A stretch of 64,000 bases of DNA from Candidatus Foliamicus sp. (lineage in GTDB: Bacteria > Pseudomonadota > Gammaproteobacteria > Steroidobacterales > Foliamicaceae), in contig OZ252226.1 in the NCBI GenBank assembly GCA_965249285.1, positions 1,788,302-1,852,301 of the forward strand. The letters run 5' to 3'. This document shows positions 10,304 through 62,511 of the stretch, piece after piece; position 1 is the stretch's first letter, and every line of letters starts with the position of its first letter. Made by a program: the position numbers and the translations under genes. The notes under the pieces are model-generated. The model was not told the DNA's origin and did no database searches. It saw nothing but the letters and a program-made list of their open reading frames with translations.

Positions 10304-10372
10304 AACGCGCTGGGAACGAGGGCATCCTGCGCTCGTCGAGGGCGAGACGCCCTCGTTCCCAGGGACGCGTTG
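10304..10372. repeat. REP-like element, family A, copy 2
   Basis: TGGGAACGAGGGCATCCTGCGCTCG TCGAGGGCGAGACGCCCTCGTTCCCAGGG inside AACGCG/CGCGTT arms. Confidence 0.9.
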
Positions 10373-13570: not shown

Positions 13571-13665
13571 GGAACAACGCCGGGAGCGAGGGCTTCCAGC
13601 CCTCGGCGACAGCCTGTCCCCGACCCTGATCGGGGAGCAAGATGCCCTCGCTCCGAGCGTGTTCC
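13571..13665. repeat. REP-like element, family A, copy 3 (with CCTGTCCCCGACCCTGATCGGGG insert)
   Basis: GGGAGCGAGGGCTTCCAGCCCTCG...AGCAAGATGCCCTCGCTCC. Confidence 0.85.
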
Positions 13666-28380: not shown

Positions 28381-28546
28381 GGAGCGAGCGCATCCCCTGG
28401 GAGTTTTCGCAGCGGGCGCCGCTGCCCTGACGCGCAGGGAACACGTTGGGAACCAGGGCTTCCCCTGGGAACGAGGGCATCCTGCCCTCGTCGAGAGCCT
28501 GTCCCCGCCGCTGATCGGGGAGCGAGACGCCCTCGTTCCCAGGGGG
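28381..28546. repeat. Composite REP-like element, family A, copy 4, between cdsA and rseP
   Basis: Accessory module CCCTGGGAGTTTTCGCAGCGGGCGCCGCTGCCCTGACGCGCAGGGAAC, then REP arms and the CCTGTCCCC...TGATCGGGG insert. Confidence 0.9.
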
Positions 28547-31603: not shown

Positions 31604-32472
31604 CGATGCTCCCGTAGCTGGGCTTCGACCTCTTCGGCAAGATCGCTGACGGGGCGTTCCACGCCCTCGCCCACTTCAAAGCGCACAAATCCATGCACCC
31701 GGGCCTTGTGGGTATTGAGCAGCGCGCCTACCTTGAGCTTGCTGTCACGCACGAAGATCTGCCCGCTCAGGCAGATGCCATCGAGAAACTTCCGCAAGCG
31801 GCCTTCCACCATGCGCGCCAGAATTTCCGGCGGCTTGCCGGAGTCGGCTGCCTGGTCAGTAAGAAAAGCGCGCTCACGCTCCACGACTTCGGCCGGGACA
31901 TTGTCGGGAGAAACATGCTGCGGGCGCATTGCCGCGACATGCATGGCTATATTCCTGCCCAGTTCAGGGTCACCGCCCTCCATGTCCACCACCACGCCGA
32001 TCCGTTGGTTGTGGACGTAGATGGATGCACCGCCCTGTGGCTCCATGCGCCGAAAACGGCGCACGCTGATGTTCTCGCCGATCCGCGCCACCGCGTCCTG
32101 CCGGGTCTGCTCCAGGGACTGCCCGTCCACTTGCAGCGCCAGCAGGGCATTGAGGTCCTCGGGCGCCTCATCCAGCACGGTTCGGGCCACGCAAGCCGCA
32201 TATTCGCGAAAGTCCTGGCGCCGGGCCACGAAATCGGTTTCGCAATTCACCTCGGCGATAGCAACCGCGCCCGAATCTTCGGCCACCGCAATCACTCCTT
32301 CCGCGGCAGCCCGGCCGGCCTTCTTCTCGGCCGCCGCGGCGCCTTTCAGGCGCAACAGGTTGCGCGCGGCCTCCGCGTCGCCGTTGGTCTCGGTCAACGC
32401 GCGCTTGCAGTCCATCATCCCCGCGCCGGTCGATTCCCGCAGGACCTTAACCTGGGCGGCGGTGATCGCCAA
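31600..32472 (-). CDS. tsf: Elongation factor Ts
   Basis: [41 protein letters not shown]; TTG start. Confidence 0.98.
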
Positions 32473-32475
32473 GAC

Positions 32476-33744
32476 CTAGTCCGCCTTTTCGGCCGGAGCC
32501 GGAGCTTCCTCGGCGGCGGGCGGGGGGGCCGGAGCCGGAGCTTCCTCGGCGGCGGGCGGGGGGGCCGGAGCCGGAGCTTCCTCGGCGGCGGGCGGGGGGG
32601 CCGGAGCCGGAGCTTCCTCGGCGGCGGGCGGGGGGGCCGGAGCCGGAGCTTCCTCGGCGGCGGGCGGGGGGGCCGGAGCCGGAGCTTCCTCGGCGGCGGG
32701 CGCAGGGGCCGGGGCCGGGGCTTCCTCGGCGGCGGGCGCGGGGGCCGGAGCCGGAGCTTCCTCGGCGGCGGGCGGGAGGGCCGGAGCTGGAGCTTCCTCG
32801 GCGGCGGGCGGGGGGGCCGGAGCCGCGCCCGCCCCGACCCTACGCGCTTTCGGCGCCACCGGCGGCGCGGCTTCGGCAGGTCTGGCGTCGCGGTCCTCCC
32901 GCTCGCGGGCTACCGCAGCCGTGCGTCGCGGCATGCGCCGCGTTACGCCCCGCAAACGCGCCGGCGTCTTGGCCCGCGACCGGGGACGATCCGATTTGGC
33001 AATCGGCTTGCCGGATTCGTCCAGCTCCACGAATTCGTCGTCGCCCAGGGAAATCTCGGGCACCTCCTCGCGTCCCTGCATGATTGCATCGGCGATACCG
33101 CGCGCGTACAGCTCAGCGGCTCGTATGGCGTCATCGTTGCCGGGAATCATGTAGTCCACGTCCTGCGGCGAACAGTTGGTGTCCACCACGGCGGCCACCG
33201 GAATGCCGAGCTTCTTGGCTTCGTTCAGGGCAATGTGCTCGTGCTCCAGGTCGATGATGAACACCGCATCCGGCAGCGAGTCCATGGCGCGGATTCCGCC
33301 GAGGGAGCGCTTCAGCTTTGCCAGCTCGCGCTTGAGTCCCAACGCTTCCTTCTTGGTGAACCTCTCGCGCATGGTCCCTTCTTCGAGGGCTTCCAGCTCT
33401 TCCAGGCGAGCGATTGACTTCTTGATGGTCTTGAGATTGGTGAGCGTGCCGCCGAGCCAGCGATGACTGACGTACGGCATGCCGCAACGCGTAGCTTCGT
33501 TGCGTATGGCATGTTGCGCGGCCCGCTTGGTACCCACGAACAGCACGGTGCCGCGCTGGGCCGCCACCGATCGCACGAACTCACAGGTCTTCTGGTAGAG
33601 CGGAACGGTCTGCTCCAGATCGATGATGTGGAGCTGATTGCGTTCGCCATAGATAAACGGCGCCATTTTCGGGTTCCAGTGCCTGGCCCGATGCCCGAAG
33701 TGCACGCCCGCATGCAACATTTCACGTACGGTGATTTCCGCCAA
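32476..33744 (-). CDS. rpsB: 30S ribosomal protein S2 with long Pro/Ala/Glu C-terminal extension
   Basis: [29 protein letters not shown]; TTG 33744 follows SD GGAG. Confidence 0.97.
32491..32826. repeat. 36-bp coding tandem repeat, 9 units ([12 protein letters not shown])
   Basis: CTTCCTCGGCGGCGGGC recurs nine times at 36-bp period. Confidence 0.95.
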
Positions 33745-33978
33745 GAGTTTGCTCCTGTGAATCGCAAGAACCTCCGGAGAGCCAAATCGTAACAACCGGG
33801 ACATTCAGCCGCCGGTTGCCGACTCGCCGAAGCGAACCCGCAATTCTATAACAACCGCCCTTCGCGCTGCAGGGGGGCCAGCGGAACTTCGGCAGGTCCC
33901 GCCCAGGTCGCCGCAGGCACATCGGACCCGATGCACGCTACTATTGGCAGGGGCACACCCGGGTAATGACAGAGCGCC

Positions 33979-37396: not shown

Positions 37397-37525
37397 CCCT
37401 GGGAGTTTTCGCAGCAGGCGCCGCTGCGCTGACGCTCAGGGAACCCCCTGGGCACGAGGGCATCCTGCCCTCGTCGAGGGCCTGTCCCCGACCCTGATCG
37501 GGGAGCTGGAAGCCCTCGTTCCCGG
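37397..37525. repeat. Composite REP-like element, family A, copy 5, between convergent glnD and hda
   Basis: Same accessory module, REP arms and insert as copy 4. Confidence 0.9.
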
Positions 37526-42880: not shown

Positions 42881-42904
42881 CGTGACGCCATTCCCCAAAC
42901 CGCT

Positions 42905-43008
42905 CCTGGGAACGAGGGCTTCCTGCCCTCGACGAGGGCAGGAAGCCCTCGTTCCCAACGTGCCCCCTGCGCGTCAGCGCAGCGGCGCCTGCTGTGAAAA
43001 ATCCCAGC
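42905..43008. repeat. Composite REP-like element, family A, copy 6 (accessory module inverted)
   Basis: CTGGGAACGAGGGCTTCCTGCCCTCGACGAGGGCAGGAAGCCCTCGTTCCCA followed by the reverse complement of the accessory module. Confidence 0.9.
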
Positions 43009-43913: not shown

Positions 43914-43920
43914 CCTGCAC

Positions 43921-44047
43921 CCTGGGAGGGAGGGCAGGATGCCCTCGTCCTGGGAGGGAGGGCATCCTGCCCTCCGTACGCGGAACACACTCCTGGGAAC
44001 GAGCGCGTCGCACCCCTGACGAGGGCATCCTGCCCTCGTTCCCAGGG
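43921..44047. repeat. REP-like cluster, family A, copy 7
   Basis: Three GAGGGC-N5-GCCCTC hairpins with CCTGGGA/TCCCAGGG flanks. Confidence 0.85.
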
Positions 44048-44058
44048 TCGGTGAAGAG

Positions 44059-44459: not shown

Positions 44460-44462
44460 GCT

Positions 44463-44516
44463 CCTGGGAAGGAGGGCATCCTGCCCTCCGAGGGCTGGAA
44501 GCCCTCGTTCCCGGGG
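44463..44516. repeat. REP-like element, family A, copy 8
   Basis: CCTGGGAAGGAGGGCATCCTGCCCTCCGAGGGCTGGAAGCCCTCGTTCCCGGGG. Confidence 0.88.
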
Positions 44517-51801: not shown

Positions 51802-51872
51802 CCCGAGAGCATCCTGCCCTGGGAACGAGGGCATCCTGCCCTTGTCGAGGGCTGAAAGCCCTCGTTCCCAGC
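51802..51872. repeat. REP-like element, family A, copy 9
   Basis: GCATCCTGCCCTGGGAACGAGGGCATCCTGCCCTTGTCGAGGGCTGAAAGCCCTCGTTCCCAG. Confidence 0.88.
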
Positions 51873-51899
51873 GGTCGCCGAATACTCGTTAAGCACCGA

Positions 51900-54172: not shown

Positions 54173-54248
54173 CCCTGGGAACGAGGGCATCCTGCCCTCG
54201 CCGAGGGCAGGATGCCCTCGTTCCCAGCGTGTTCACTGCGAAAACTCG
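54173..54248. repeat. REP-like element, family A, copy 10 (near consensus)
   Basis: CCCTGGGAACGAGGGCATCCTGCCCTCGCCGAGGGCAGGATGCCCTCGTTCCCAG plus a partial accessory module. Confidence 0.92.
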
Positions 54249-57194: not shown

Positions 57195-57587
57195 TCACTC
57201 GTCCGGCAGAGTCATAAGCAAACTGCGCGCCGGCGAGTGACCGTCGAGATCCAGAAGTTGATCCGTCCACGCCCGGCGCTTACCGAGCCGCTTTGCCAAC
57301 GCGGCCGGACTCATGCCTTGCTCGCACATGGCTGCATATAGCGCCAGTTTGCTCTCCACGAACGGTGGCAGCTGCACCACCGGGCGGCCTCGCGCCTCCG
57401 ACGGAACCGGAATTGCCCAACCACGAGAAATGTATCCGCCCAATCCGCCAATGAGGCAATCCTTCGCCTCGGACAGCGCTTCCCGTTCGCTCTCTCCTTC
57501 CGTGAGTGCTTTCGGCACGTCGGGAAATGACACCAATATTGCGCCGTTCCGCTGGCTCTTCAATGTAATGGGGCATGCGAAACGCAT
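57195..57587 (-). CDS. hicB: HicB-family antitoxin, C-terminus possibly degraded
   Basis: ILVSFPDVP.ALTEGES..EAL..AKDCL..GLGGY....AIPVPS, then an HTH-like MSPAALAKRLG. Confidence 0.78.
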   Translation of the reverse strand: MRFACPITLKSQRNGAILVSFPDVPKALTEGESEREALSEAKDCLIGGLGGYISRGWAIPVPSEARGRPVVQLPPFVESKLALYAAMCEQGMSPAALAKRLGKRRAWTDQLLDLDGHSPARSLLMTLPDE

Positions 57588-57603: not shown

Positions 57604-58974
57604 CTAAGACTTGCTCGGGCGGACCTCGGAGACAGCGCTTCTTAGTTCGGCGGTCTTTTGTGCGAGAAGTTCGGGATCGGCGTGGGTTTCGAGGTTCAGG
57701 CGCAACAGCGGTTCGGTGTTCGAGGCTCTCAGGTTGAATCGCCAGTCAGGAAATTCAACCGACAGGCCGTCGATGTGATCGACCACGCCGCCTTGACCGA
57801 CGTATTGCTCCTCCAGGCGGCTCAGCAGCGGAGGAAGCTCCTCGGCTGCCGGCAGGTTGATTTCGCCGCTGGTCGGGTAGCGTGCCTTGCGCTCGGCGGT
57901 GCGCTCGGCCAGGCCTCCGCCCTGCGCGGAGAGGATGCCCGCCATGAGCACCCAGGGGATCATGCCGGAGTCGCAGTAGAGGAACTCCCGGAAATAGTGG
58001 TGGGCGCTGCTCTCTCCCCCGTACACTGCGTCTTCCTCGCGCATCCGCTGTTTCAGGAATGCGTGCCCGGCCCGGTTCATGATTGGTTGCCCGCCCGCAG
58101 CCCGCACCTGCTCTTCGGTGTCCCACACAAGCTTGGGATCGTGGACCACCCGTCGATCCCCGGCCGGCCGGGAAGAAAGCAAGGTGGCCGCAAACATGCC
58201 TACGGTGTAGTACGGATCGACGTAATCGCCCCGCTCGTCAAAAAAACCGCAGCGGTCGAAATCGCCGTCGAAGGCTACGCCGAAATCGGCGCGATGCTCC
58301 AGGACCGCTTGCGAAGTGGCCAGGCGGGTGCTGTCGTGCAAGGGATTGGGCACGCCGTTCGGGAAACGCCCATCCGGCTCGGCCAGCAAGTGAACGATTT
58401 CCAGCGGCGTCTCCCCGGCCAGCACCTCCACGCTTGGGCCGGCGGCGCCGTTTCCTGAATTGATGACGAGCTTCAGCGGCTTTAGGGGAAACTCCTCGAC
58501 GAAGGAAAGGACTCTACGCCGCCACGAAGCATGAACGTCGACCCGCCGGATCCGGCCACGCGCGCCGCGCGGAATCGGGGACTCCGCCATTCGCGCAATA
58601 TCGGCAAGGCCGGTGTCGCCGCTGATCGGACGCGCTTCCTCGCGCACCAGCTTCAGGCCGTTGTAGTCGGCGGGATTGTGGCTGGCGGTCACCATGACTC
58701 CGGCGCCGCAGCCGAACCTTCCGGTAGCGAAATAGACCTGCTCGGTGCCGCAAAGGCCCAGGTCGGCGACATCGGCGCCGGCCCGTGTTACACCTTCGGC
58801 GACTGCGGCGGCTATCTCGGGACTGGACAGCCGGGCATCGTGGCCCAGGACAACTTCCTTTGCGCCGGTAAAACGAACCAGCGCAGCGCCGATCCGGCAG
58901 GCGAGGTCGGCATTGAACTCTTCCGGAACCCGCCCGCGAACGTCGTATGCCTTGAACGGCGGCTTAAGCCTCAT
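57604..58974 (-). CDS. manB: Phosphomannomutase/phosphoglucomutase (CpsG type)
   Basis: FKAYDVRG, TASHNP, DGDFDR, GESSAHHYF, RASNTEP. Confidence 0.95.
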   Translation of the reverse strand: MRLKPPFKAYDVRGRVPEEFNADLACRIGAALVRFTGAKEVVLGHDARLSSPEIAAAVAEGVTRAGADVADLGLCGTEQVYFATGRFGCGAGVMVTASHNPADYNGLKLVREEARPISGDTGLADIARMAESPIPRGARGRIRRVDVHASWRRRVLSFVEEFPLKPLKLVINSGNGAAGPSVEVLAGETPLEIVHLLAEPDGRFPNGVPNPLHDSTRLATSQAVLEHRADFGVAFDGDFDRCGFFDERGDYVDPYYTVGMFAATLLSSRPAGDRRVVHDPKLVWDTEEQVRAAGGQPIMNRAGHAFLKQRMREEDAVYGGESSAHHYFREFLYCDSGMIPWVLMAGILSAQGGGLAERTAERKARYPTSGEINLPAAEELPPLLSRLEEQYVGQGGVVDHIDGLSVEFPDWRFNLRASNTEPLLRLNLETHADPELLAQKTAELRSAVSEVRPSKS

Positions 58975-59003: not shown

Positions 59004-59110
59004 TTGGCGCCCTCGTCCCTTCCTGCCGGGGGACGCATGAATCGATCCCTGGAGCTTGCTCCGGCATCCCTGCCTCCGATACCCCCGGCAGGAAGGGACG
59101 AGGGCGCCAA
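59004..59110. repeat. Palindromic element, family B, copy 2 (perfect 29-bp arms, 49-nt core)
   Basis: 59004-59032 is the exact reverse complement of 59082-59110. Confidence 0.88.
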
Positions 59111-59124
59111 GGACACCACCGGGC

Positions 59125-60828
59125 TCAGGCACGGCCGTAGGCGTCTTCGAAGCGCTCGATGTCGTCCTCGCCCAGGTATTCACCTAACTGCACTTCCACA
59201 ATCTCCGCCAGTTCTTTGCCCGGATTGTGAATCCGGTGGACGCTGCCCAGCGGAATGCAAATGTGATCGCCAACCTTAAGCGAATGGTTTTCGCCGTCGC
59301 GCTCGGCCACCGGCGAACCGCTCACCACCACCCAATGCTCATCTCGCCGGCGATGGCGCTGCAGCGAAAGCGTCTCGCCGGGAAGGACTCGCAGACACTT
59401 GACCTGGTAGCCCTCGCCCTGCCCCAGGCCTTCAAAGCTGCCCCAGGGCCGAAAGACTTCCTCGCCTACTGCATGCAATCCGGAGCCGTTGTCCTGCGCA
59501 AGCGGCTCGCCACGGCCCACGCCGAAGTATCGAAAGCCCTTGTCCCGCATGACGTCCGGCGAGTACAGGTTGCGGCCGTCAAAGACCACCGGTTTCTTGA
59601 GTTGGTCCCGCAGCTTGTCGAAGTCGGGCGAACGGAACTGCGGCCACTCGGTCACAACGGCCAGGGCGTCCGCGCCGTCCACCGCTTGGTCGGCATCGGC
59701 GGCGTACTCGATTCCCTCGCGATCGCCCAGCACCGCCCTGCAGCGCTCCATGGCCACCGGATCGTACGCCCGTACCCGGGCGCCCTGTGACAGCAGGAAA
59801 TCGATAAGCACCAGGCTGGGCGCCTCGCGCATGTCATCGGTGCCGGGTTTGAACGACAAGCCCCACAGGGCGATCAGGCGGCCGGCCAGCGTGTCTCCGA
59901 AGTAGGCCTTGATCTTGCGCCCCAGCGCGGCCTTCTGCGTCTCGTTGACGCGCGCTACAGCCTCGACGATCCGCGCCCGATAGCCGTGTTCGCGCGCGGT
60001 CTGCGCCAGCGCGGCGGTATCCTTCGGCAGACAGGAGCCTCCATAACCGCCGCCTGCGTACAGGTAGTTGTAGCCGATACGCTGGTCGGCGCCGATTGCG
60101 CTGCGCACCTGCTCGATATCGGCGCCGACGCGTTCGGCCAGACAGGCCAGCTCGTTCATAAAGCTGATGCGCGTGGCCAGCATGGCGTTGGCTGCGTACT
60201 TGGTCAGTTCCGCAGAGGAGCGATCCATGACCATGAGGCGATCGTGCTTGCGGTGAAACGGTGCGTACAAGCCGCTTAAGTAATCGATCGCGCGCTTGCT
60301 GCGGGTGCCGAGAATGATGCGTTCGGGGTGGGTGAAATCCGACACCGCCGCACCGCCTTTCAGGAATTCCGGATTGGACACGACGTCAAACTCATAATCG
60401 GCGCCACGATCGGCCAGGCGCCGGGCGATGCGCTCTTCCACCCGTGCAGAGGTGCCTACCGGAACGGTGGATTTGCACACCACCAGGCGATAGGCGGGCA
60501 TGTGATCGGCAATCGAATCGGCCACCGCGAAGACCTGGCGCAGATCGGCCTGTCCGTTGCCGCCGGGCGGAGTGCTGACGGCGATGAACTGGGCCTCGCC
60601 ATGTTCCACGCCGCTCTTGATGTCGGTGCTGAACCGCAGGCGGCCGGCCTTCAAATTCCTGTGAACCAGTTCCTCGAGCCCGGGCTCGAAAATGTGCAGC
60701 TCGCCCCGGCGGAGGCGTTCTATGGTGGCGCGGTCGATATCCAGGCCAACGACGCTGACGCCGGTTTCCGCGAAACAAGCGCCGGTCACGAGTCCCACGT
60801 AGCCGCAGCCGTGAACGGTAATCTTCAT
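59125..60828 (-). CDS. ugd: UDP-glucose/GDP-mannose 6-dehydrogenase fused to a type II phosphomannose isomerase cupin
   Basis: GCGYVG, KSTVPVGT, NPEFL, KYAAN, GYGGSCLPKD, FDGRN; then RPWG...SLQRH..DEHW...HRIHNPG...EDDIERFED. Confidence 0.9.
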   Translation of the reverse strand: MKITVHGCGYVGLVTGACFAETGVSVVGLDIDRATIERLRRGELHIFEPGLEELVHRNLKAGRLRFSTDIKSGVEHGEAQFIAVSTPPGGNGQADLRQVFAVADSIADHMPAYRLVVCKSTVPVGTSARVEERIARRLADRGADYEFDVVSNPEFLKGGAAVSDFTHPERIILGTRSKRAIDYLSGLYAPFHRKHDRLMVMDRSSAELTKYAANAMLATRISFMNELACLAERVGADIEQVRSAIGADQRIGYNYLYAGGGYGGSCLPKDTAALAQTAREHGYRARIVEAVARVNETQKAALGRKIKAYFGDTLAGRLIALWGLSFKPGTDDMREAPSLVLIDFLLSQGARVRAYDPVAMERCRAVLGDREGIEYAADADQAVDGADALAVVTEWPQFRSPDFDKLRDQLKKPVVFDGRNLYSPDVMRDKGFRYFGVGRGEPLAQDNGSGLHAVGEEVFRPWGSFEGLGQGEGYQVKCLRVLPGETLSLQRHRRRDEHWVVVSGSPVAERDGENHSLKVGDHICIPLGSVHRIHNPGKELAEIVEVQLGEYLGEDDIERFEDAYGRA

Positions 60829-60906
60829 GGCTACGCTATTTTAGGCGTGCGGCGTTACGCAGACGTTTCACCACTATAGCCGCGCCGCTTCTTGCACAGC
60901 CCCTCG

Positions 60907-60963
60907 CCCTGGGAACGAGGGGTTCCCGCCCTCGCGGAGGGCAGGATGCCCTCCATCCAAGGG
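60907..60963. repeat. REP-like element, family A, copy 11
   Basis: CCCTGGGAACGAGGGGTTCCCGCCCTCGCGGAGGGCAGGATGCCCTCCATCCAAGGG. Confidence 0.85.
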
Positions 60964-60969
60964 ATTCGG

Positions 60970-62511
60970 CTAGCCGAGGATCAATTTGGCCAATGGCGGT
61001 TGCGAGTCATCGTCGGCGGCCAGGCGCTTGGCATGTTCTACCCCCCACTGGTCAAAGGGATTCACGCCCAGCAACGCCGCCTGCACAAAAACCTTGTGCT
61101 CGTACCAGGCGATCAGGCCGCCAAGGTGCATGGGATCCAGCGTCTTGAGCAGCAGCACGCTGGAGGGCCGGCCGCCGGGCAGAGTCTTGTGGACCGCGAG
61201 AGGGTCCGATGCGATTTCGCTCTCGGCCAGGCCGCGGGCCATGGTTTCGGCCTGGGCCAGCATCTGGCGCAAGGCCTCCGCGTGCATCCCGGGATAGGCT
61301 CCACCGCTTCGGCGCACGGCGACGAAGTCCGCAGATACGGTGCTCGCTCCCTGCTGCGCCCATTGCATGATGGAATGCTGCGCGCTGGATCCGGTAACTC
61401 CCCACAGTGCCGCCACGCCCTTCACCGCCAGCGGAGTCCCTCGCGCGTCCTTGCTCTTGCCCAGGCTCTCCAGCTCCAGTTGCTGAAGATAGCCGGGAAG
61501 TAGGGCCAGGCGCGTGTCGTAGGGCAACTGGAGTTGGCTGGAGCAACCCAGAAACGACTGGTTCCAGAGCGCAAATAGCGCCATCAGCACCGGCAGGTTA
61601 CGGTCAGGCGGCGCCTGGAGAAAATGCTCGTCCAGCCATCGGCCCCCGGCGAGGAATTCGTTCATCCGGGCGCTGCCGAGTGCAATCCAGGCGCTCAGGC
61701 CGGCGGCCGACCACACCGAATAGCGTCCGCCCACGCCGTCGGGCATGACAAATTGCATTTCCGGATCGATGCCCCAGGAGGTCATGGCCTGCGGGTTGGA
61801 GGAAACGGCTGCGAATTGCCGGGCCGGGGCCTCCTCGCCCTGCCTGGCCACCAGCCAGTGGCGCGCCGAATAGGCGTTGGCCATCGTCTCCGTGGTGGAG
61901 AAACTCTTCGAGCACACCACCAACAGGGTCTCTTCGGGGACGGCCTCCGCCAGGGCGCGTTGCAGCTCCACGCCATCCATTTCGGACACGAATTTCACCG
62001 CCAGACTGCCGTCATCCGCCAGCGCCGAGCACAATAGCCGGGGCCCTAGATCGGATCCCCCGATACCGATATTGACCAGGCGAGTAAGCGGCCTGCCCCG
62101 GAGTCCCTTGACCTCGCCGGCCCGAAATCGCTCGGCAAAGGCAATTACTCGTTGACGTTCTTTCGCCAGAACGGGGTCGCGAGGATCCACCGCCCGGGCG
62201 TCCGGATGCACGGCGGCCCGATTCTCGCTGGGATTCACAACCTCGCCGTTGAACAGGGCGGCCCGCGCCGCCGGAATATTGCGCGCTTCGACCAGCTTCA
62301 GGAGAAGCCGGAGCGTCTCGGCCGTTACCTTCTGGCGGCTGAAGTCCAGCAACAATTCAGCCCCGCCCGGGCCCTCCTCGCACAGCGAGAATTCGCCAAA
62401 CCGCCCCGGCGTGTCCAGTAGATCGCCAAGACGCCAATCGCCGGCCCCGACTGCATGCTGGGTAAGCGCGGTCCACTCCGGCAGCTGGTCAACCGGCGGA
62501 CTATTCCTCAT
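60970..62511 (-). CDS. pgi: Glucose-6-phosphate isomerase
   Basis: GIGGSDLG, SKSFST.ET, VGGRYSVWS, QQLELESLGK, FDQWGVE. Confidence 0.95.
   Translation of the reverse strand: MRNSPPVDQLPEWTALTQHAVGAGDWRLGDLLDTPGRFGEFSLCEEGPGGAELLLDFSRQKVTAETLRLLLKLVEARNIPAARAALFNGEVVNPSENRAAVHPDARAVDPRDPVLAKERQRVIAFAERFRAGEVKGLRGRPLTRLVNIGIGGSDLGPRLLCSALADDGSLAVKFVSEMDGVELQRALAEAVPEETLLVVCSKSFSTTETMANAYSARHWLVARQGEEAPARQFAAVSSNPQAMTSWGIDPEMQFVMPDGVGGRYSVWSAAGLSAWIALGSARMNEFLAGGRWLDEHFLQAPPDRNLPVLMALFALWNQSFLGCSSQLQLPYDTRLALLPGYLQQLELESLGKSKDARGTPLAVKGVAALWGVTGSSAQHSIMQWAQQGASTVSADFVAVRRSGGAYPGMHAEALRQMLAQAETMARGLAESEIASDPLAVHKTLPGGRPSSVLLLKTLDPMHLGGLIAWYEHKVFVQAALLGVNPFDQWGVEHAKRLAADDDSQPPLAKLILG

Follow-up and report, generated by a model that had tools for sequence, protein, structure and literature searches.

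Type II phosphomannose isomerase (PMI) occurs as the C-terminal cupin of the bifunctional type II PMI-GDP-mannose pyrophosphorylases (ManC/AlgA/WbpW/XanB; TIGR01479), and also as stand-alone PMIs in bacteria, picocyanobacteria, cyanophages, chloroviruses and Thermococcus (7zvm/7zvy). Genuine genes that encode a PF01050 cupin alone, 110-135 aa long, are in fact common (see also PMC9602691), so the view taken in the initial annotation of this locus, that the cupin is normally the C-terminal domain of ManC, was too narrow. UDP-glucose dehydrogenases (UGDs) of the BceC type, represented by the Burkholderia cepacia structures 2y0c/2y0e, are three-domain enzymes with a GGSC(L/F)PKD motif. In the window, by which we mean the whole stretch of 64,000 nucleotides analysed here, a predicted UGD and a predicted type II PMI cupin are joined in one open reading frame, with the following parts:

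59125 to 60828, minus strand: the fusion ORF, 567 aa, with an ATG start and its stop codon at 59125-59127 (ORF list, Pfam and NCBIfam)
60283 to 60828, minus strand: UGD NAD-binding domain PF03721 (UDPG_MGDP_dh_N), residues 1-182, 195 bits, with the Rossmann motif GCGYVG
59941 to 60216, minus strand: UGD central/dimerisation domain PF00984, residues 205-296, 126 bits
59560 to 59871, minus strand: UGD UDP-binding domain PF03720, residues 320-423, 111 bits, with K327 and R334 kept
59455 to 59508, minus strand: linker, residues ~441-458, RGEPLAQDNGSGLHAVGE, predicted to be flexible
59143 to 59478, minus strand: type II PMI cupin PF01050 (MannoseP_isomer), match to residues 451-562, the domain reaching the C-terminus at 59128
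59332 to 59367, minus strand: PMI motif S488-L-Q490-R-H492-R-R-R495-D-E497-H-W499, with His531 of the second motif at 59236-59238

The complete three-domain UGD occupies residues 1 to about 440 and the cupin residues 451-567. All three dehydrogenase Pfam domains exceed their cutoffs, the NCBIfam nucleotide-sugar dehydrogenase model TIGR03026 scores 431 bits (cutoff 190), and the PF01050 match covers profile positions 5-116 of 116 with 126 bits (cutoff 23.6). Between them, the linker varies in sequence across the clade at a constant length, and its residues 445-450 have an AlphaFold pLDDT below 50. The GMP_PMI model TIGR01479 is matched by the fusion tail only at 353-467, with 125 bits (cutoff 373), and Pfam gave no match in the fusion to NTP_transferase (PF00483) or PF22640, i.e., the protein is without a guanylyltransferase domain. 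The characteristic motifs lie at residues 263-270 (GGSCLPKD), 488-492 (SLQRH), 497-499 (EHW) and 531-533 (HRI). The initial annotation, which had described a dehydrogenase and a ManC-type cupin in a single ORF, had quoted the motifs GSCLPKD, SLQRH, EHW and HRI and had noted the missing guanylyltransferase domain, is thus borne out by the ORF list, Pfam and NCBIfam.

Residues 1-439 align end to end with the Burkholderia cepacia UGD structure (523 bits), and alignment to the BceC structure 2y0e places K210, N214, the catalytic C266 (codon 60031-60033) and D270 in the central domain. The residues that serve as family criteria are present, namely C266, K210, N214, D270, E154, T121 and the Rossmann glycines G7/G9/G12. 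Across the fusion sequences, G7, G9, Y10, G12, D30, T86, S120, T121 and P153, as well as E154, E207, K210, N214, C266, D270, N295, K327 and R334, are each kept in 45-47 of 47; these residues match the invariant list of PMC4794789, as mapped by eye through the motifs and not from an alignment with the S. pyogenes protein. Among 201 unfused UGDs, 94 columns show at least 90% conservation, and the UGD half of the window's protein retains 92 of them; the dN/dS of this half, about 0.15, indicates purifying selection. The scores to equivalog NCBIfam models are 471 bits for TuaD (cutoff 700) and 360 bits for AglM (cutoff 670). Overall, the N-terminal half is most likely a BceC-like UDP-glucose 6-dehydrogenase, as predicted from these alignments.

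In the cupin half, S488, Q490, H492, R495, E497 and H531 are invariant in all 47 fusion sequences, and the same PMI motif residues form invariant columns across 92 aligned PF01050 cupins; the roles of the Ser, Gln, His and Arg408 of this motif are given in PMC9602691. The window's protein keeps 38 of 40 conserved cupin columns. Conservation within the protein is highest in the cupin, where the mean column identity is 0.94 as compared with 0.86-0.91 in the UGD domains, and the cupin's dN/dS of about 0.09 again indicates purifying selection. Both halves are thus maintained by selection, in keeping with the alternative offered in the initial annotation, that selection built a bifunctional enzyme. 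The AlphaFold model of the cupin (pLDDT 93) is an all-beta monocupin barrel that superposes best on the Thermococcus stand-alone PMIs 7zvy/7zvm, at TM-scores of 0.77-0.90. When the PDB was searched by sequence and profile for an experimental structure of this domain, only generic cupins at 32 bits or less were returned, and the profile search gave no structure closer than these.

There is virtually no chance that the fusion is an artefact of assembly or gene calling, such as a chimeric contig or a missed stop or frameshift between adjacent genes. One record, P0123/L082, annotates just the last 114 aa as a gene, as such an artefact might predict, but the L082 locus itself contains an intact 567-codon ORF. 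Logan contigs from the independent runs X1 and X2 cover 59149-60953 with no mismatches and no gaps, and run X5, which carries a different host label, covers 59032-60937 with 52 substitutions and no gaps; the junction, for which the initial annotation had proposed a read check, is spanned without interruption. The gap-free contigs and the intact ORF of L082 rule out a misassembly or hidden stop at the junction. In addition, about 46 database clusters from four sources (ENA, NCBI, JGI and Logan), at 75-96% identity, are every one exactly 567 aa long, and the codon-level selection signal runs on through the linker. A further reading, in which the N-terminal half would be an AlgD-like GDP-mannose 6-dehydrogenase that ties the PMI to GDP-mannose oxidation in one mannuronate pathway, is likewise extremely unlikely. 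Although the two dehydrogenases belong to the same Pfam superfamily, and the PMI and PMM neighbours hint at a mannose theme, the fusion scores 184 bits to the P. aeruginosa GDP-mannose dehydrogenase as against the 523 bits to the UGD structure, its nearest relatives (61-63% identity) are annotated as UDP-glucose 6-dehydrogenase, and the NCBIfam matches include no AlgD-type model.

The remaining alternatives would leave the protein with one working half, and here three relatives with a decayed dehydrogenase are informative. In L081, a genome nested beside the fusion-bearing L083, the region from pgi through the UGD is deleted, manB is separately deleted with a remnant left, and homology to the window restarts at residue ~451; the cupin that remains has a dN/dS of 0.06-0.14. 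P0391 carries an in-frame internal deletion that joins residues 1-222 to 443-567. P0046 is full length with the substitutions Y10R, E154G, K210R, N214S, C266G and D270G, and its UGD has lost all but 77 of the 94 conserved columns, yet its pairwise dN/dS is still about 0.17. Since the UGD was lost three times while the cupin stayed intact, the predicted isomerase appears to be the indispensable and autonomous part, with the dehydrogenase dispensable in some members. This argues against the unlikely reading that the cupin is a non-catalytic relic, or a dimerisation or sugar-phosphate-sensing module, in a protein that functions only as a UGD: survival of the cupin ORF through deletion, truncation or inactivation of the UGD makes no sense of a mere UGD-accessory role, and the low dN/dS, the high column identity and the invariance of the motif in all 47 sequences point the same way. 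What such a relic would have in its favour is that proteins sharing the PMI motif can be without PMI activity and that CBU0671 did not complement a manA mutant (PMC3204966), so that the motif alone is no proof of activity, together with the cupin's 47.5% identity to the E. coli ManC tail (residues 358-477) and the NCBI name of the proteins. The converse reading, in which the window's dehydrogenase half is a pseudoenzyme or regulatory scaffold, for instance one that binds NAD(H) or a UDP-sugar and controls the attached isomerase, leaving PMI as the sole catalytic activity, is quite unlikely. The window's protein and 45 of 46 clusters have an essentially intact set of catalytic and invariant residues and retain 88-92 of the 94 conserved columns; two of the clusters carry single substitutions (Y10H, K327N). 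The scaffold would fit with relatives that tolerate loss of UGD catalysis, with P0046, in which a full-length UGD fold under constraint (dN/dS ~0.17) has its catalytic residues replaced, and with two changes found clade-wide, P45H and E158G/A, at near-universal UGD positions (conservation above 90%). We take E158 to be the equivalent of Glu145 in S. pyogenes. Glu145 adjoins the UDP diphosphate, but it is just 76% conserved family-wide and contacts the phosphate through its backbone nitrogen (PMC4794789). If the UGD moiety were a sensing scaffold, the flux of fructose-6-phosphate into mannose would be gated by UDP-sugar or redox status, and P0046, with its dead, full-length, constrained UGD, would represent a pure regulatory form.

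In our search for the distribution of this architecture, an exhaustive HMMER run over 1.84 billion 50%-identity representatives, the UGD-cupin combination was present in one cluster among the 150 best-scoring matches, which were inspected; other long matches were UGD tandems, UGD-GT2, UGD-epimerase and intein-containing UGDs. The architecture searches reach UGDs down to about 35% identity, and fusions on more distant UGDs escape them. Word-indexed searches seemed biased towards short proteins, their lists lacking even the 567-aa fusions, and a half-and-half query (UGD C-domain plus cupin) gave only same-clade fragments and P0391 among the matches listed. The locus L019 was considered as a further fusion, as a tblastn match seemed to enter the cupin, and proved to be an ordinary 443-aa UGD. 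In database and literature searches, the UGD-cupin architecture turned up in no protein that is characterised or otherwise widespread, which agrees with the initial annotation, where no characterised enzyme of this kind was known. No paper on a UGD-cupin fusion or on 'Foliamicus' was found in the literature search; one relative bears the NCBI name Candidatus Foliamicus sp., and the NCBI annotation of these proteins is merely 'nucleotide sugar dehydrogenase'. As judged from these searches, the predicted UGD-PMI architecture is rare, and the fusion is a conserved gene of an uncultured marine gammaproteobacterial lineage that joins what are by prediction two ordinary enzymes.

The fusion gene lies among the following features:

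60970 to 62511, minus strand: pgi (glucose-6-phosphate isomerase), upstream; PF00342 419 bits, NF001211 518 bits, above cutoff
60907 to 60963, no strand given: REP-like palindromic repeat in the pgi-fusion spacer, of repeat families D2-D4, with at least 12 copies in the window
59006 to 59108, no strand given: perfect 24-nt inverted repeat in the fusion-manB spacer (arms 59006-59029 and 59085-59108), depth ~250x
57604 to 58974, minus strand: phosphomannomutase/phosphoglucomutase (PMM/PGM; ManB/AlgC type), downstream, with four PGM_PMM domains

The downstream mutase has its best NCBIfam matches to CpsG/PMM-PGM, under the equivalog cutoffs. The placement between pgi and a manB-type gene given in the initial annotation holds, and the gene order NhaB-pgi-fusion-PMM/PGM-gltX-hydrolase is conserved in relatives, on Mb-sized contigs. 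The pgi-fusion spacer is 141 nt in the window versus 53-89 nt in relatives because of the insertion of the REP-like repeat, which lies outside the enzyme and at which contig depth is 800-3200x, the flanks being at about 20-60x. The gap between the fusion and manB is only 6-32 nt in relatives. From the content of pgi, PMI and PMM, a contiguous route from glucose-6-phosphate through fructose-6-phosphate and mannose-6-phosphate to mannose-1-phosphate is a reasonable prediction. A tblastn search with E. coli ManC for a guanylyltransferase matched only the cupin in the window and in eight related loci, and the stand-alone GDP-mannose pyrophosphorylase that the initial annotation had suggested looking for was found neither in the 64-kb window nor, in relatives, at up to 10 kb from the fusion gene. 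The window, a housekeeping region, contains no glycosyltransferase cluster that would reveal the use of the products. A promoter/terminator scan over the three-gene stretch gave results at or under chance, and no RNA runs carrying the fusion sequence were found.

With regard to the origin of the fusion, the initial annotation had suggested, as one possibility, a deletion that fused ugd with the manC tail. Circumstantial support for this comes from the unfused UGDs nearest to the fusion (61-62% identity), whose genes are followed by a full-length manC directly or one gene further downstream. However, those manC genes, with 48-55% identity to the fusion cupin, are not especially close to it, and in a neighbour-joining tree 141 of 200 bootstraps placed the fusion cupin in a group whose other members were all stand-alone cupins, and 0 of 200 placed it with ManC tails exclusively. 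This grouping suggests that a fusion of ugd with a neighbouring stand-alone PMI gene is at least as likely. The identity ranking is mixed, with stand-alone cupins and ManC fragments both at 55-61% to the fusion cupin, and no class-diagnostic columns separating stand-alone cupins from ManC tails were found. The nearest stand-alone PF01050 genes are followed, after 8 bp, by a ROK sugar kinase gene.

We favour, at a probability of about 0.68, an inherited fusion in which a UGD and a PMI on a flexible linker supply precursors, the cupin being autonomous and essential and the UGD sometimes dispensable. The fusion is genuine, vertically inherited and fixed in one uncultured gammaproteobacterial lineage. 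Its polypeptide would comprise two enzymes that fold independently and are tethered by some 15 flexible residues. The dehydrogenase, residues 1 to about 440, would convert UDP-glucose to UDP-glucuronate with two NAD+ via a thioester intermediate on Cys266, and the C-terminal ~110 residues, a putative metal-dependent type II PMI monocupin, would interconvert fructose-6-phosphate and mannose-6-phosphate. As the UGD and PMI reactions are not consecutive, we do not propose substrate channelling; rather, the fusion most likely fixes the co-expression of two precursor-supply activities, which, with pgi upstream and PMM/PGM downstream, may provide hexose phosphates and nucleotide sugars for a surface polysaccharide. 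The analysis demonstrates the architecture and its conservation, purifying selection, the retention of the motifs, a predicted fold and a decay that affects the dehydrogenase alone; both activities, their substrates and what the fusion is for are inferred from sequence. The protein is most likely a bifunctional enzyme feeding sugar-nucleotide precursors, a new architecture built from known domains.

If both halves are active, this would be an undescribed bifunctional enzyme for sugar-nucleotide precursor supply and the second natural case, after ManC/AlgA, of a type II PMI barrel on an enzyme of a non-neighbouring step, and it would be relevant to the question of why fusions of this small barrel are so frequent. 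The clade amounts to a natural experiment, in which intact, point-inactivated, internally deleted and fully deleted UGDs accompany the same conserved isomerase, and these variants can reveal whether the barrel needs a partner. The database label also has a practical consequence, since it hides what may be the sole PMI of these uncultured bacteria, so that metabolic reconstructions would mis-score mannose activation as absent. Both domains and both chemistries are already well known, and no new field is opened.

Compared with the BceC-type UGD, the fusion has the same three domains and the same catalytic motifs, but adds a C-terminal cupin seen in no characterised UGD, carries P45H and E158G/A as clade features, and misses the NCBIfam equivalog cutoffs. 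The other UGD fusions among the representatives (UGD-UGD, UGD-glycosyltransferase 2, UGD-NAD epimerase/dehydratase and inteins) are without PF01050, and they show an apparent proneness of UGD to C-terminal fusion with other polysaccharide-pathway enzymes. With the ManC family the fusion shares a homologous C-terminal cupin with the motifs S-x-Q-x-H-x-x-R-x-E-H-W and H-R-x-x-N, and in both the cupin is joined to a nucleotide-sugar enzyme that would not catalyse the adjacent step, whereas the fusion lacks the NTP_transferase and beta-helix domains and has a dehydrogenase as its partner. Stand-alone type II PMIs have the same domain at the same size and form the nearest tree group of the fusion cupin, to which the bacterial ones are 50-59% identical. 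The derived form in L081 is exactly such a stand-alone PMI-type gene, whereas the window's cupin lacks its own start codon and is produced as the C-terminal end of a UGD.

The 567-aa open reading frame at 59125-60828 (minus strand) starts with ATG and lies exactly where the initial annotation had placed it. The motifs claimed for it were all read in the translation (GGSCLPKD at residues 263-270, SLQRH at 488-492, EHW at 497-499 and HRI at 531-533), and the claimed neighbours are both present on its strand.

Features of the fusion locus
57604-58974, minus strand: four-domain phosphomannomutase/phosphoglucomutase (PMM/PGM, manB), the downstream gene
59125-60828, minus strand: the fusion gene
Fusion residues 1-182, 205-296 and 320-423: the three domains of the UDP-glucose/GDP-mannose dehydrogenase family (Pfam)
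Fusion residues 451-562: PF01050, "Mannose-6-phosphate isomerase C-terminal" (Pfam, 126 bits against a gathering score of 23.6)
60970-62511, minus strand: pgi, the upstream gene

The N-terminal part belongs to the nucleotide-sugar dehydrogenase family (NCBIfam TIGR03026, 431 bits against a cutoff of 190) and is very probably a UDP-glucose 6-dehydrogenase (UGD); its 439 residues can be aligned over their whole length to the structure of UDP-glucose dehydrogenase from Burkholderia cepacia (523 bits), compared with 184 bits for the Pseudomonas GDP-mannose dehydrogenase. The C-terminal part belongs to the PF01050 family of type II phosphomannose isomerase (PMI) domains; the Pfam match is full-length (profile positions 5-116 of 116), and the generic Cupin_2 model also matches. 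Membership in the bifunctional ManC/AlgA family was considered and rejected because the defining guanylyltransferase domain is absent: Pfam detects no nucleotidyltransferase domain in the ORF, as had been claimed, and only positions 353-467 of the NCBIfam GMP_PMI model are matched by the tail, far under the model cutoff.

The fusion is biological and not an artefact, since gap-free contigs cross it, all full-length homologs retrieved share its length, and its frame is intact even where one record splits it. The initial annotation had called for a read check of the junction. Independently assembled contigs from two public runs of one sample span 59149-60953 with 0 mismatches and 0 gaps, and a 1906-nt contig from a run with a different host label spans 59032-60937 with 52 substitutions and 0 gaps. 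A search of 5.8 billion protein clusters returned 46 full-length clusters at 75-96% identity, drawn from ENA, NCBI, JGI and Logan assemblies with contigs of 2.2-3.5 Mb among them, and all 46 are 567 aa long with the same five Pfam domains. The split record is an NCBI gene call covering only the last 114 codons, at a locus (L082, 3063-4766) where the 567-codon frame is unbroken; in that MAG, these codons are called "phosphomannose isomerase type II C-terminal cupin domain". Elsewhere the NCBI name is "nucleotide sugar dehydrogenase", which masks the PMI domain, so that annotation is inconsistent between records.

Both halves keep their catalytic motifs. Of the 94 columns with 90% or higher conservation among 201 unfused UGD relatives, the window protein retains 92, including the Rossmann glycines, Tyr10, Asp30, Thr86, Ser120-Thr121, Pro153-Glu154, Glu207, Lys210, Asn214, Cys266, Asp270, Asn295, Lys327 and Arg334, which were equated by motif with the invariant set tabulated in PMC4794789. 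The other two columns, Pro and Glu in more than 90% of the same relatives, are changed clade-wide: P45H (codon 45, 60694-60696) and E158G/A (codon 158, 60355-60357), the latter within NPEFLK(E>G)G. Position 158 is equivalent to Glu145 of S. pyogenes, which is 76% conserved family-wide and lies beside the UDP diphosphate, making contact via its backbone nitrogen (PMC4794789). The only clade member with Glu at 158 is P0046, a protein whose catalytic residues are otherwise destroyed, and we regard E158G/A as a lineage peculiarity and no sign of inactivity. In the cupin, 38 of 40 columns with 85% or higher conservation across 118 further PF01050 domains are retained. None of the 47 fusion sequences varies at the Ser, Gln, His or Arg of the shared PMI motif, at the Glu that follows or at the His of the second motif. 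The motif residues serve to bind phosphate, open the sugar ring and bind zinc, and Arg408 of the Pseudomonas enzyme also has an assigned role (PMC9602691). UGD part, linker and cupin have median pairwise dN/dS values of 0.15, 0.20 and 0.09, respectively (Nei-Gojobori, seven genes).

AlphaFold2 models two confident domains joined by a segment (residues 445-450) with pLDDT below 50, and the overall pTM of 0.69 predicts no fixed packing between them. Modelled alone, the cupin reaches pLDDT 93, and its best full-length superpositions are on stand-alone Thermococcus phosphomannose isomerases (TM-score 0.77-0.78 by query, 0.85-0.90 by target); profile search found no closer solved structure.

Three relatives have lost the dehydrogenase and kept the cupin, and these natural variants are the most useful by-product of the analysis. 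In L081 (5426-6590), a locus on a 2.76-Mb contig, the 618 bp after NhaB are unrelated to the window. Homology restarts at 59477, at about residue 451, where the Pfam cupin match begins, and continues to the stop codon; between cupin and gltX, manB is reduced to a 53-codon remnant. The cupin there forms an open gene of 131-139 aa in which no motif residue is missing, and its pairwise dN/dS against the fusions is 0.06-0.14. The insert, which replaces the stretch from pgi through UGD, codes for a 148-182-aa protein with GGxGxD-like calcium-binding repeats. This stand-alone state is derived, because the closest relative of L081 among the genomes compared, L083 (GltX 83%, NhaB 90%), bears an intact fusion. 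In the 345-aa P0391 (Candidatus Foliamicus sp., 2.45-Mb contig), fusion residues 1-222 are joined in frame to 443-567, a deletion that takes out the catalytic cysteine and the UDP-binding domain. P0046 (L086, 2280-3983) retains 567 aa and all five Pfam domains, with substitutions including Y10R, T86A, K119I, E154G, K210R, Y211C, N214S, C266G, P268S, K269R and D270G; it keeps 77 of the 94 conserved UGD columns, against 88-92 in every other member, and its cupin motif is unaltered. Y211C and N214S are common to P0046 and P0391. The two proteins may, judging from their sequences, stem from a common inactivated ancestor. Read most simply, the three variants mean that the isomerase is indispensable and autonomous and that some members of the lineage can do without the dehydrogenase.

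As for origin, the initial annotation proposed an in-frame deletion joining ugd to the tail of manC. The gene order it presupposes does occur: the nearest unfused UGDs (61-62% identity) have a full-length manC downstream on the same strand, 365 bp away in locus L094 and one gene off in L093, where PMM/PGM lies further along. However, the ManC tails beside these UGDs are only 48-55% identical to the fusion cupin, no closer than many others. In neighbour-joining trees, the fusion clade is monophyletic in 200/200 bootstraps, and its nearest group consists of stand-alone cupins only in 141/200 and of ManC tails only in 0/200, which leans towards a stand-alone PMI gene as the source. Such PF01050 genes are abundant and genuine in our data and elsewhere (PMC9602691); the stand-alone label was assigned by length and a Met start, and no single column separates them from ManC tails. 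Either route may have produced the fusion. In the stand-alone cupins nearest the fusion's (loci L095-L099, e.g., L095 4075-5464), 8 bp separate the cupin gene from a downstream gene for a ROK-family sugar kinase, a pairing consistent with a hexose being phosphorylated and then isomerised.

Relatives share with the window the gene order NhaB, pgi, fusion, PMM/PGM, gltX, alpha/beta-hydrolase, at a housekeeping-protein identity of only 77-87%. These genomes are labelled "MAG: Gammaproteobacteria bacterium", and one is Candidatus Foliamicus sp., family Candidatus Foliamicaceae. Beyond the sugar genes, the window carries ordinary chromosomal genes (enolase, CTP synthase, DnaE, LpxB, BamA, RseP, S2, GlnD) and no polysaccharide gene cluster. 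The S2 gene (ORF 32476-33804, minus strand) carries ten tandem 36-nt units at 32419-32897, which would encode a long repetitive C-terminal extension; the S2 domain occupies only residues 29-244 of 442. Between manB and tRNA-Val/gltX, a 130-aa ORF (57195-57587, minus strand) that weakly matches a HicB-like antitoxin (22 bits, short of the cutoff) looks like an insertion specific to this genome, as L083 and another related locus, L084, hold just ~160-210 nt there.

The three sugar genes are close-packed in relatives (spacers of 53-89 nt and 6-32 nt), compared with about 140-150 nt on both sides of the fusion in the window, where each spacer holds a repeat.

Repeats in the window
59006-59029 / 59085-59108: perfect 24-nt inverted repeat, 55-nt loop, occupying the fusion-manB spacer
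60907-60963: REP-like palindrome inserted in the pgi-fusion spacer
723-751, 10308-10364, 13578-13606, 28463-28491, 37446-37474, 42904-42958, 43920-44058, 44462-44514, 51817-51873, 54173-54227: further REP-like copies

The REP-like element (consensus CTGGGAACGAGGGCATCCTGCCCTCG-CGAGGGCAGGATGCCCTCGTTCCCAG) has at least 12 copies in the 64 kb, mostly intergenic, and in translation yields a recurring spurious peptide, PWERG.PALAEGRMPS. In public contigs, word depth at the 60907-60963 copy is 800-3200x against ~20-60x in the flanks, and many contigs end there. The 24-nt inverted repeat, at ~250x, is probably another multi-copy element, and with no T-run after it, it is no obvious terminator.

When 1.84 billion 50%-identity representatives were searched exhaustively with HMMER, the best 150 matches included a single fusion representative, the other 149 being plain UGDs, UGD tandems, UGD-glycosyltransferase, UGD-epimerase or intein-bearing UGDs. 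A second search, whose query gave the UGD C-domain and the cupin equal weight, turned up no independent fusion, and full-length matches came from only 3 of 185,579 species-representative genomes. The initial annotation knew of no characterised enzyme of this architecture, and we likewise found no published paper on it. As far as these searches reach (very divergent UGD fusions would escape them), the combination is uncharacterised and confined to one uncultured lineage. Other architectures seen outside the window (P0241, P0278, P0297, P0346, P0256, P0318, P0334) comprise head-to-tail UGD-UGD tandems of 910-942 aa, fusions of UGD to glycosyltransferase 2 or NAD epimerase/dehydratase, and UGDs whose central domain is split, near the catalytic-Cys motif, by inteins that carry LAGLIDADG endonucleases.

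Overall, we consider the protein a probable bifunctional UGD and PMI (probability roughly 0.7). It would carry two independent active sites, one converting UDP-glucose to UDP-glucuronate and the other interconverting fructose-6-phosphate and mannose-6-phosphate. As an operon with pgi and PMM/PGM, the locus would feed hexose phosphates into both the UDP-glucose and GDP-mannose branches; no guanylyltransferase was found in the window or within 10 kb of the fusion gene in relatives. A conserved PMI motif is no proof of PMI activity (PMC3204966). In practical terms, present annotation masks a probable phosphomannose isomerase. Channelling is not expected, since the two reactions are adjacent in no pathway. 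ManC/AlgA, the classical home of this cupin, likewise joins two non-adjacent steps, with PMI as step 1 and guanylyltransferase as step 3 of GDP-mannose synthesis (PMC3204966).
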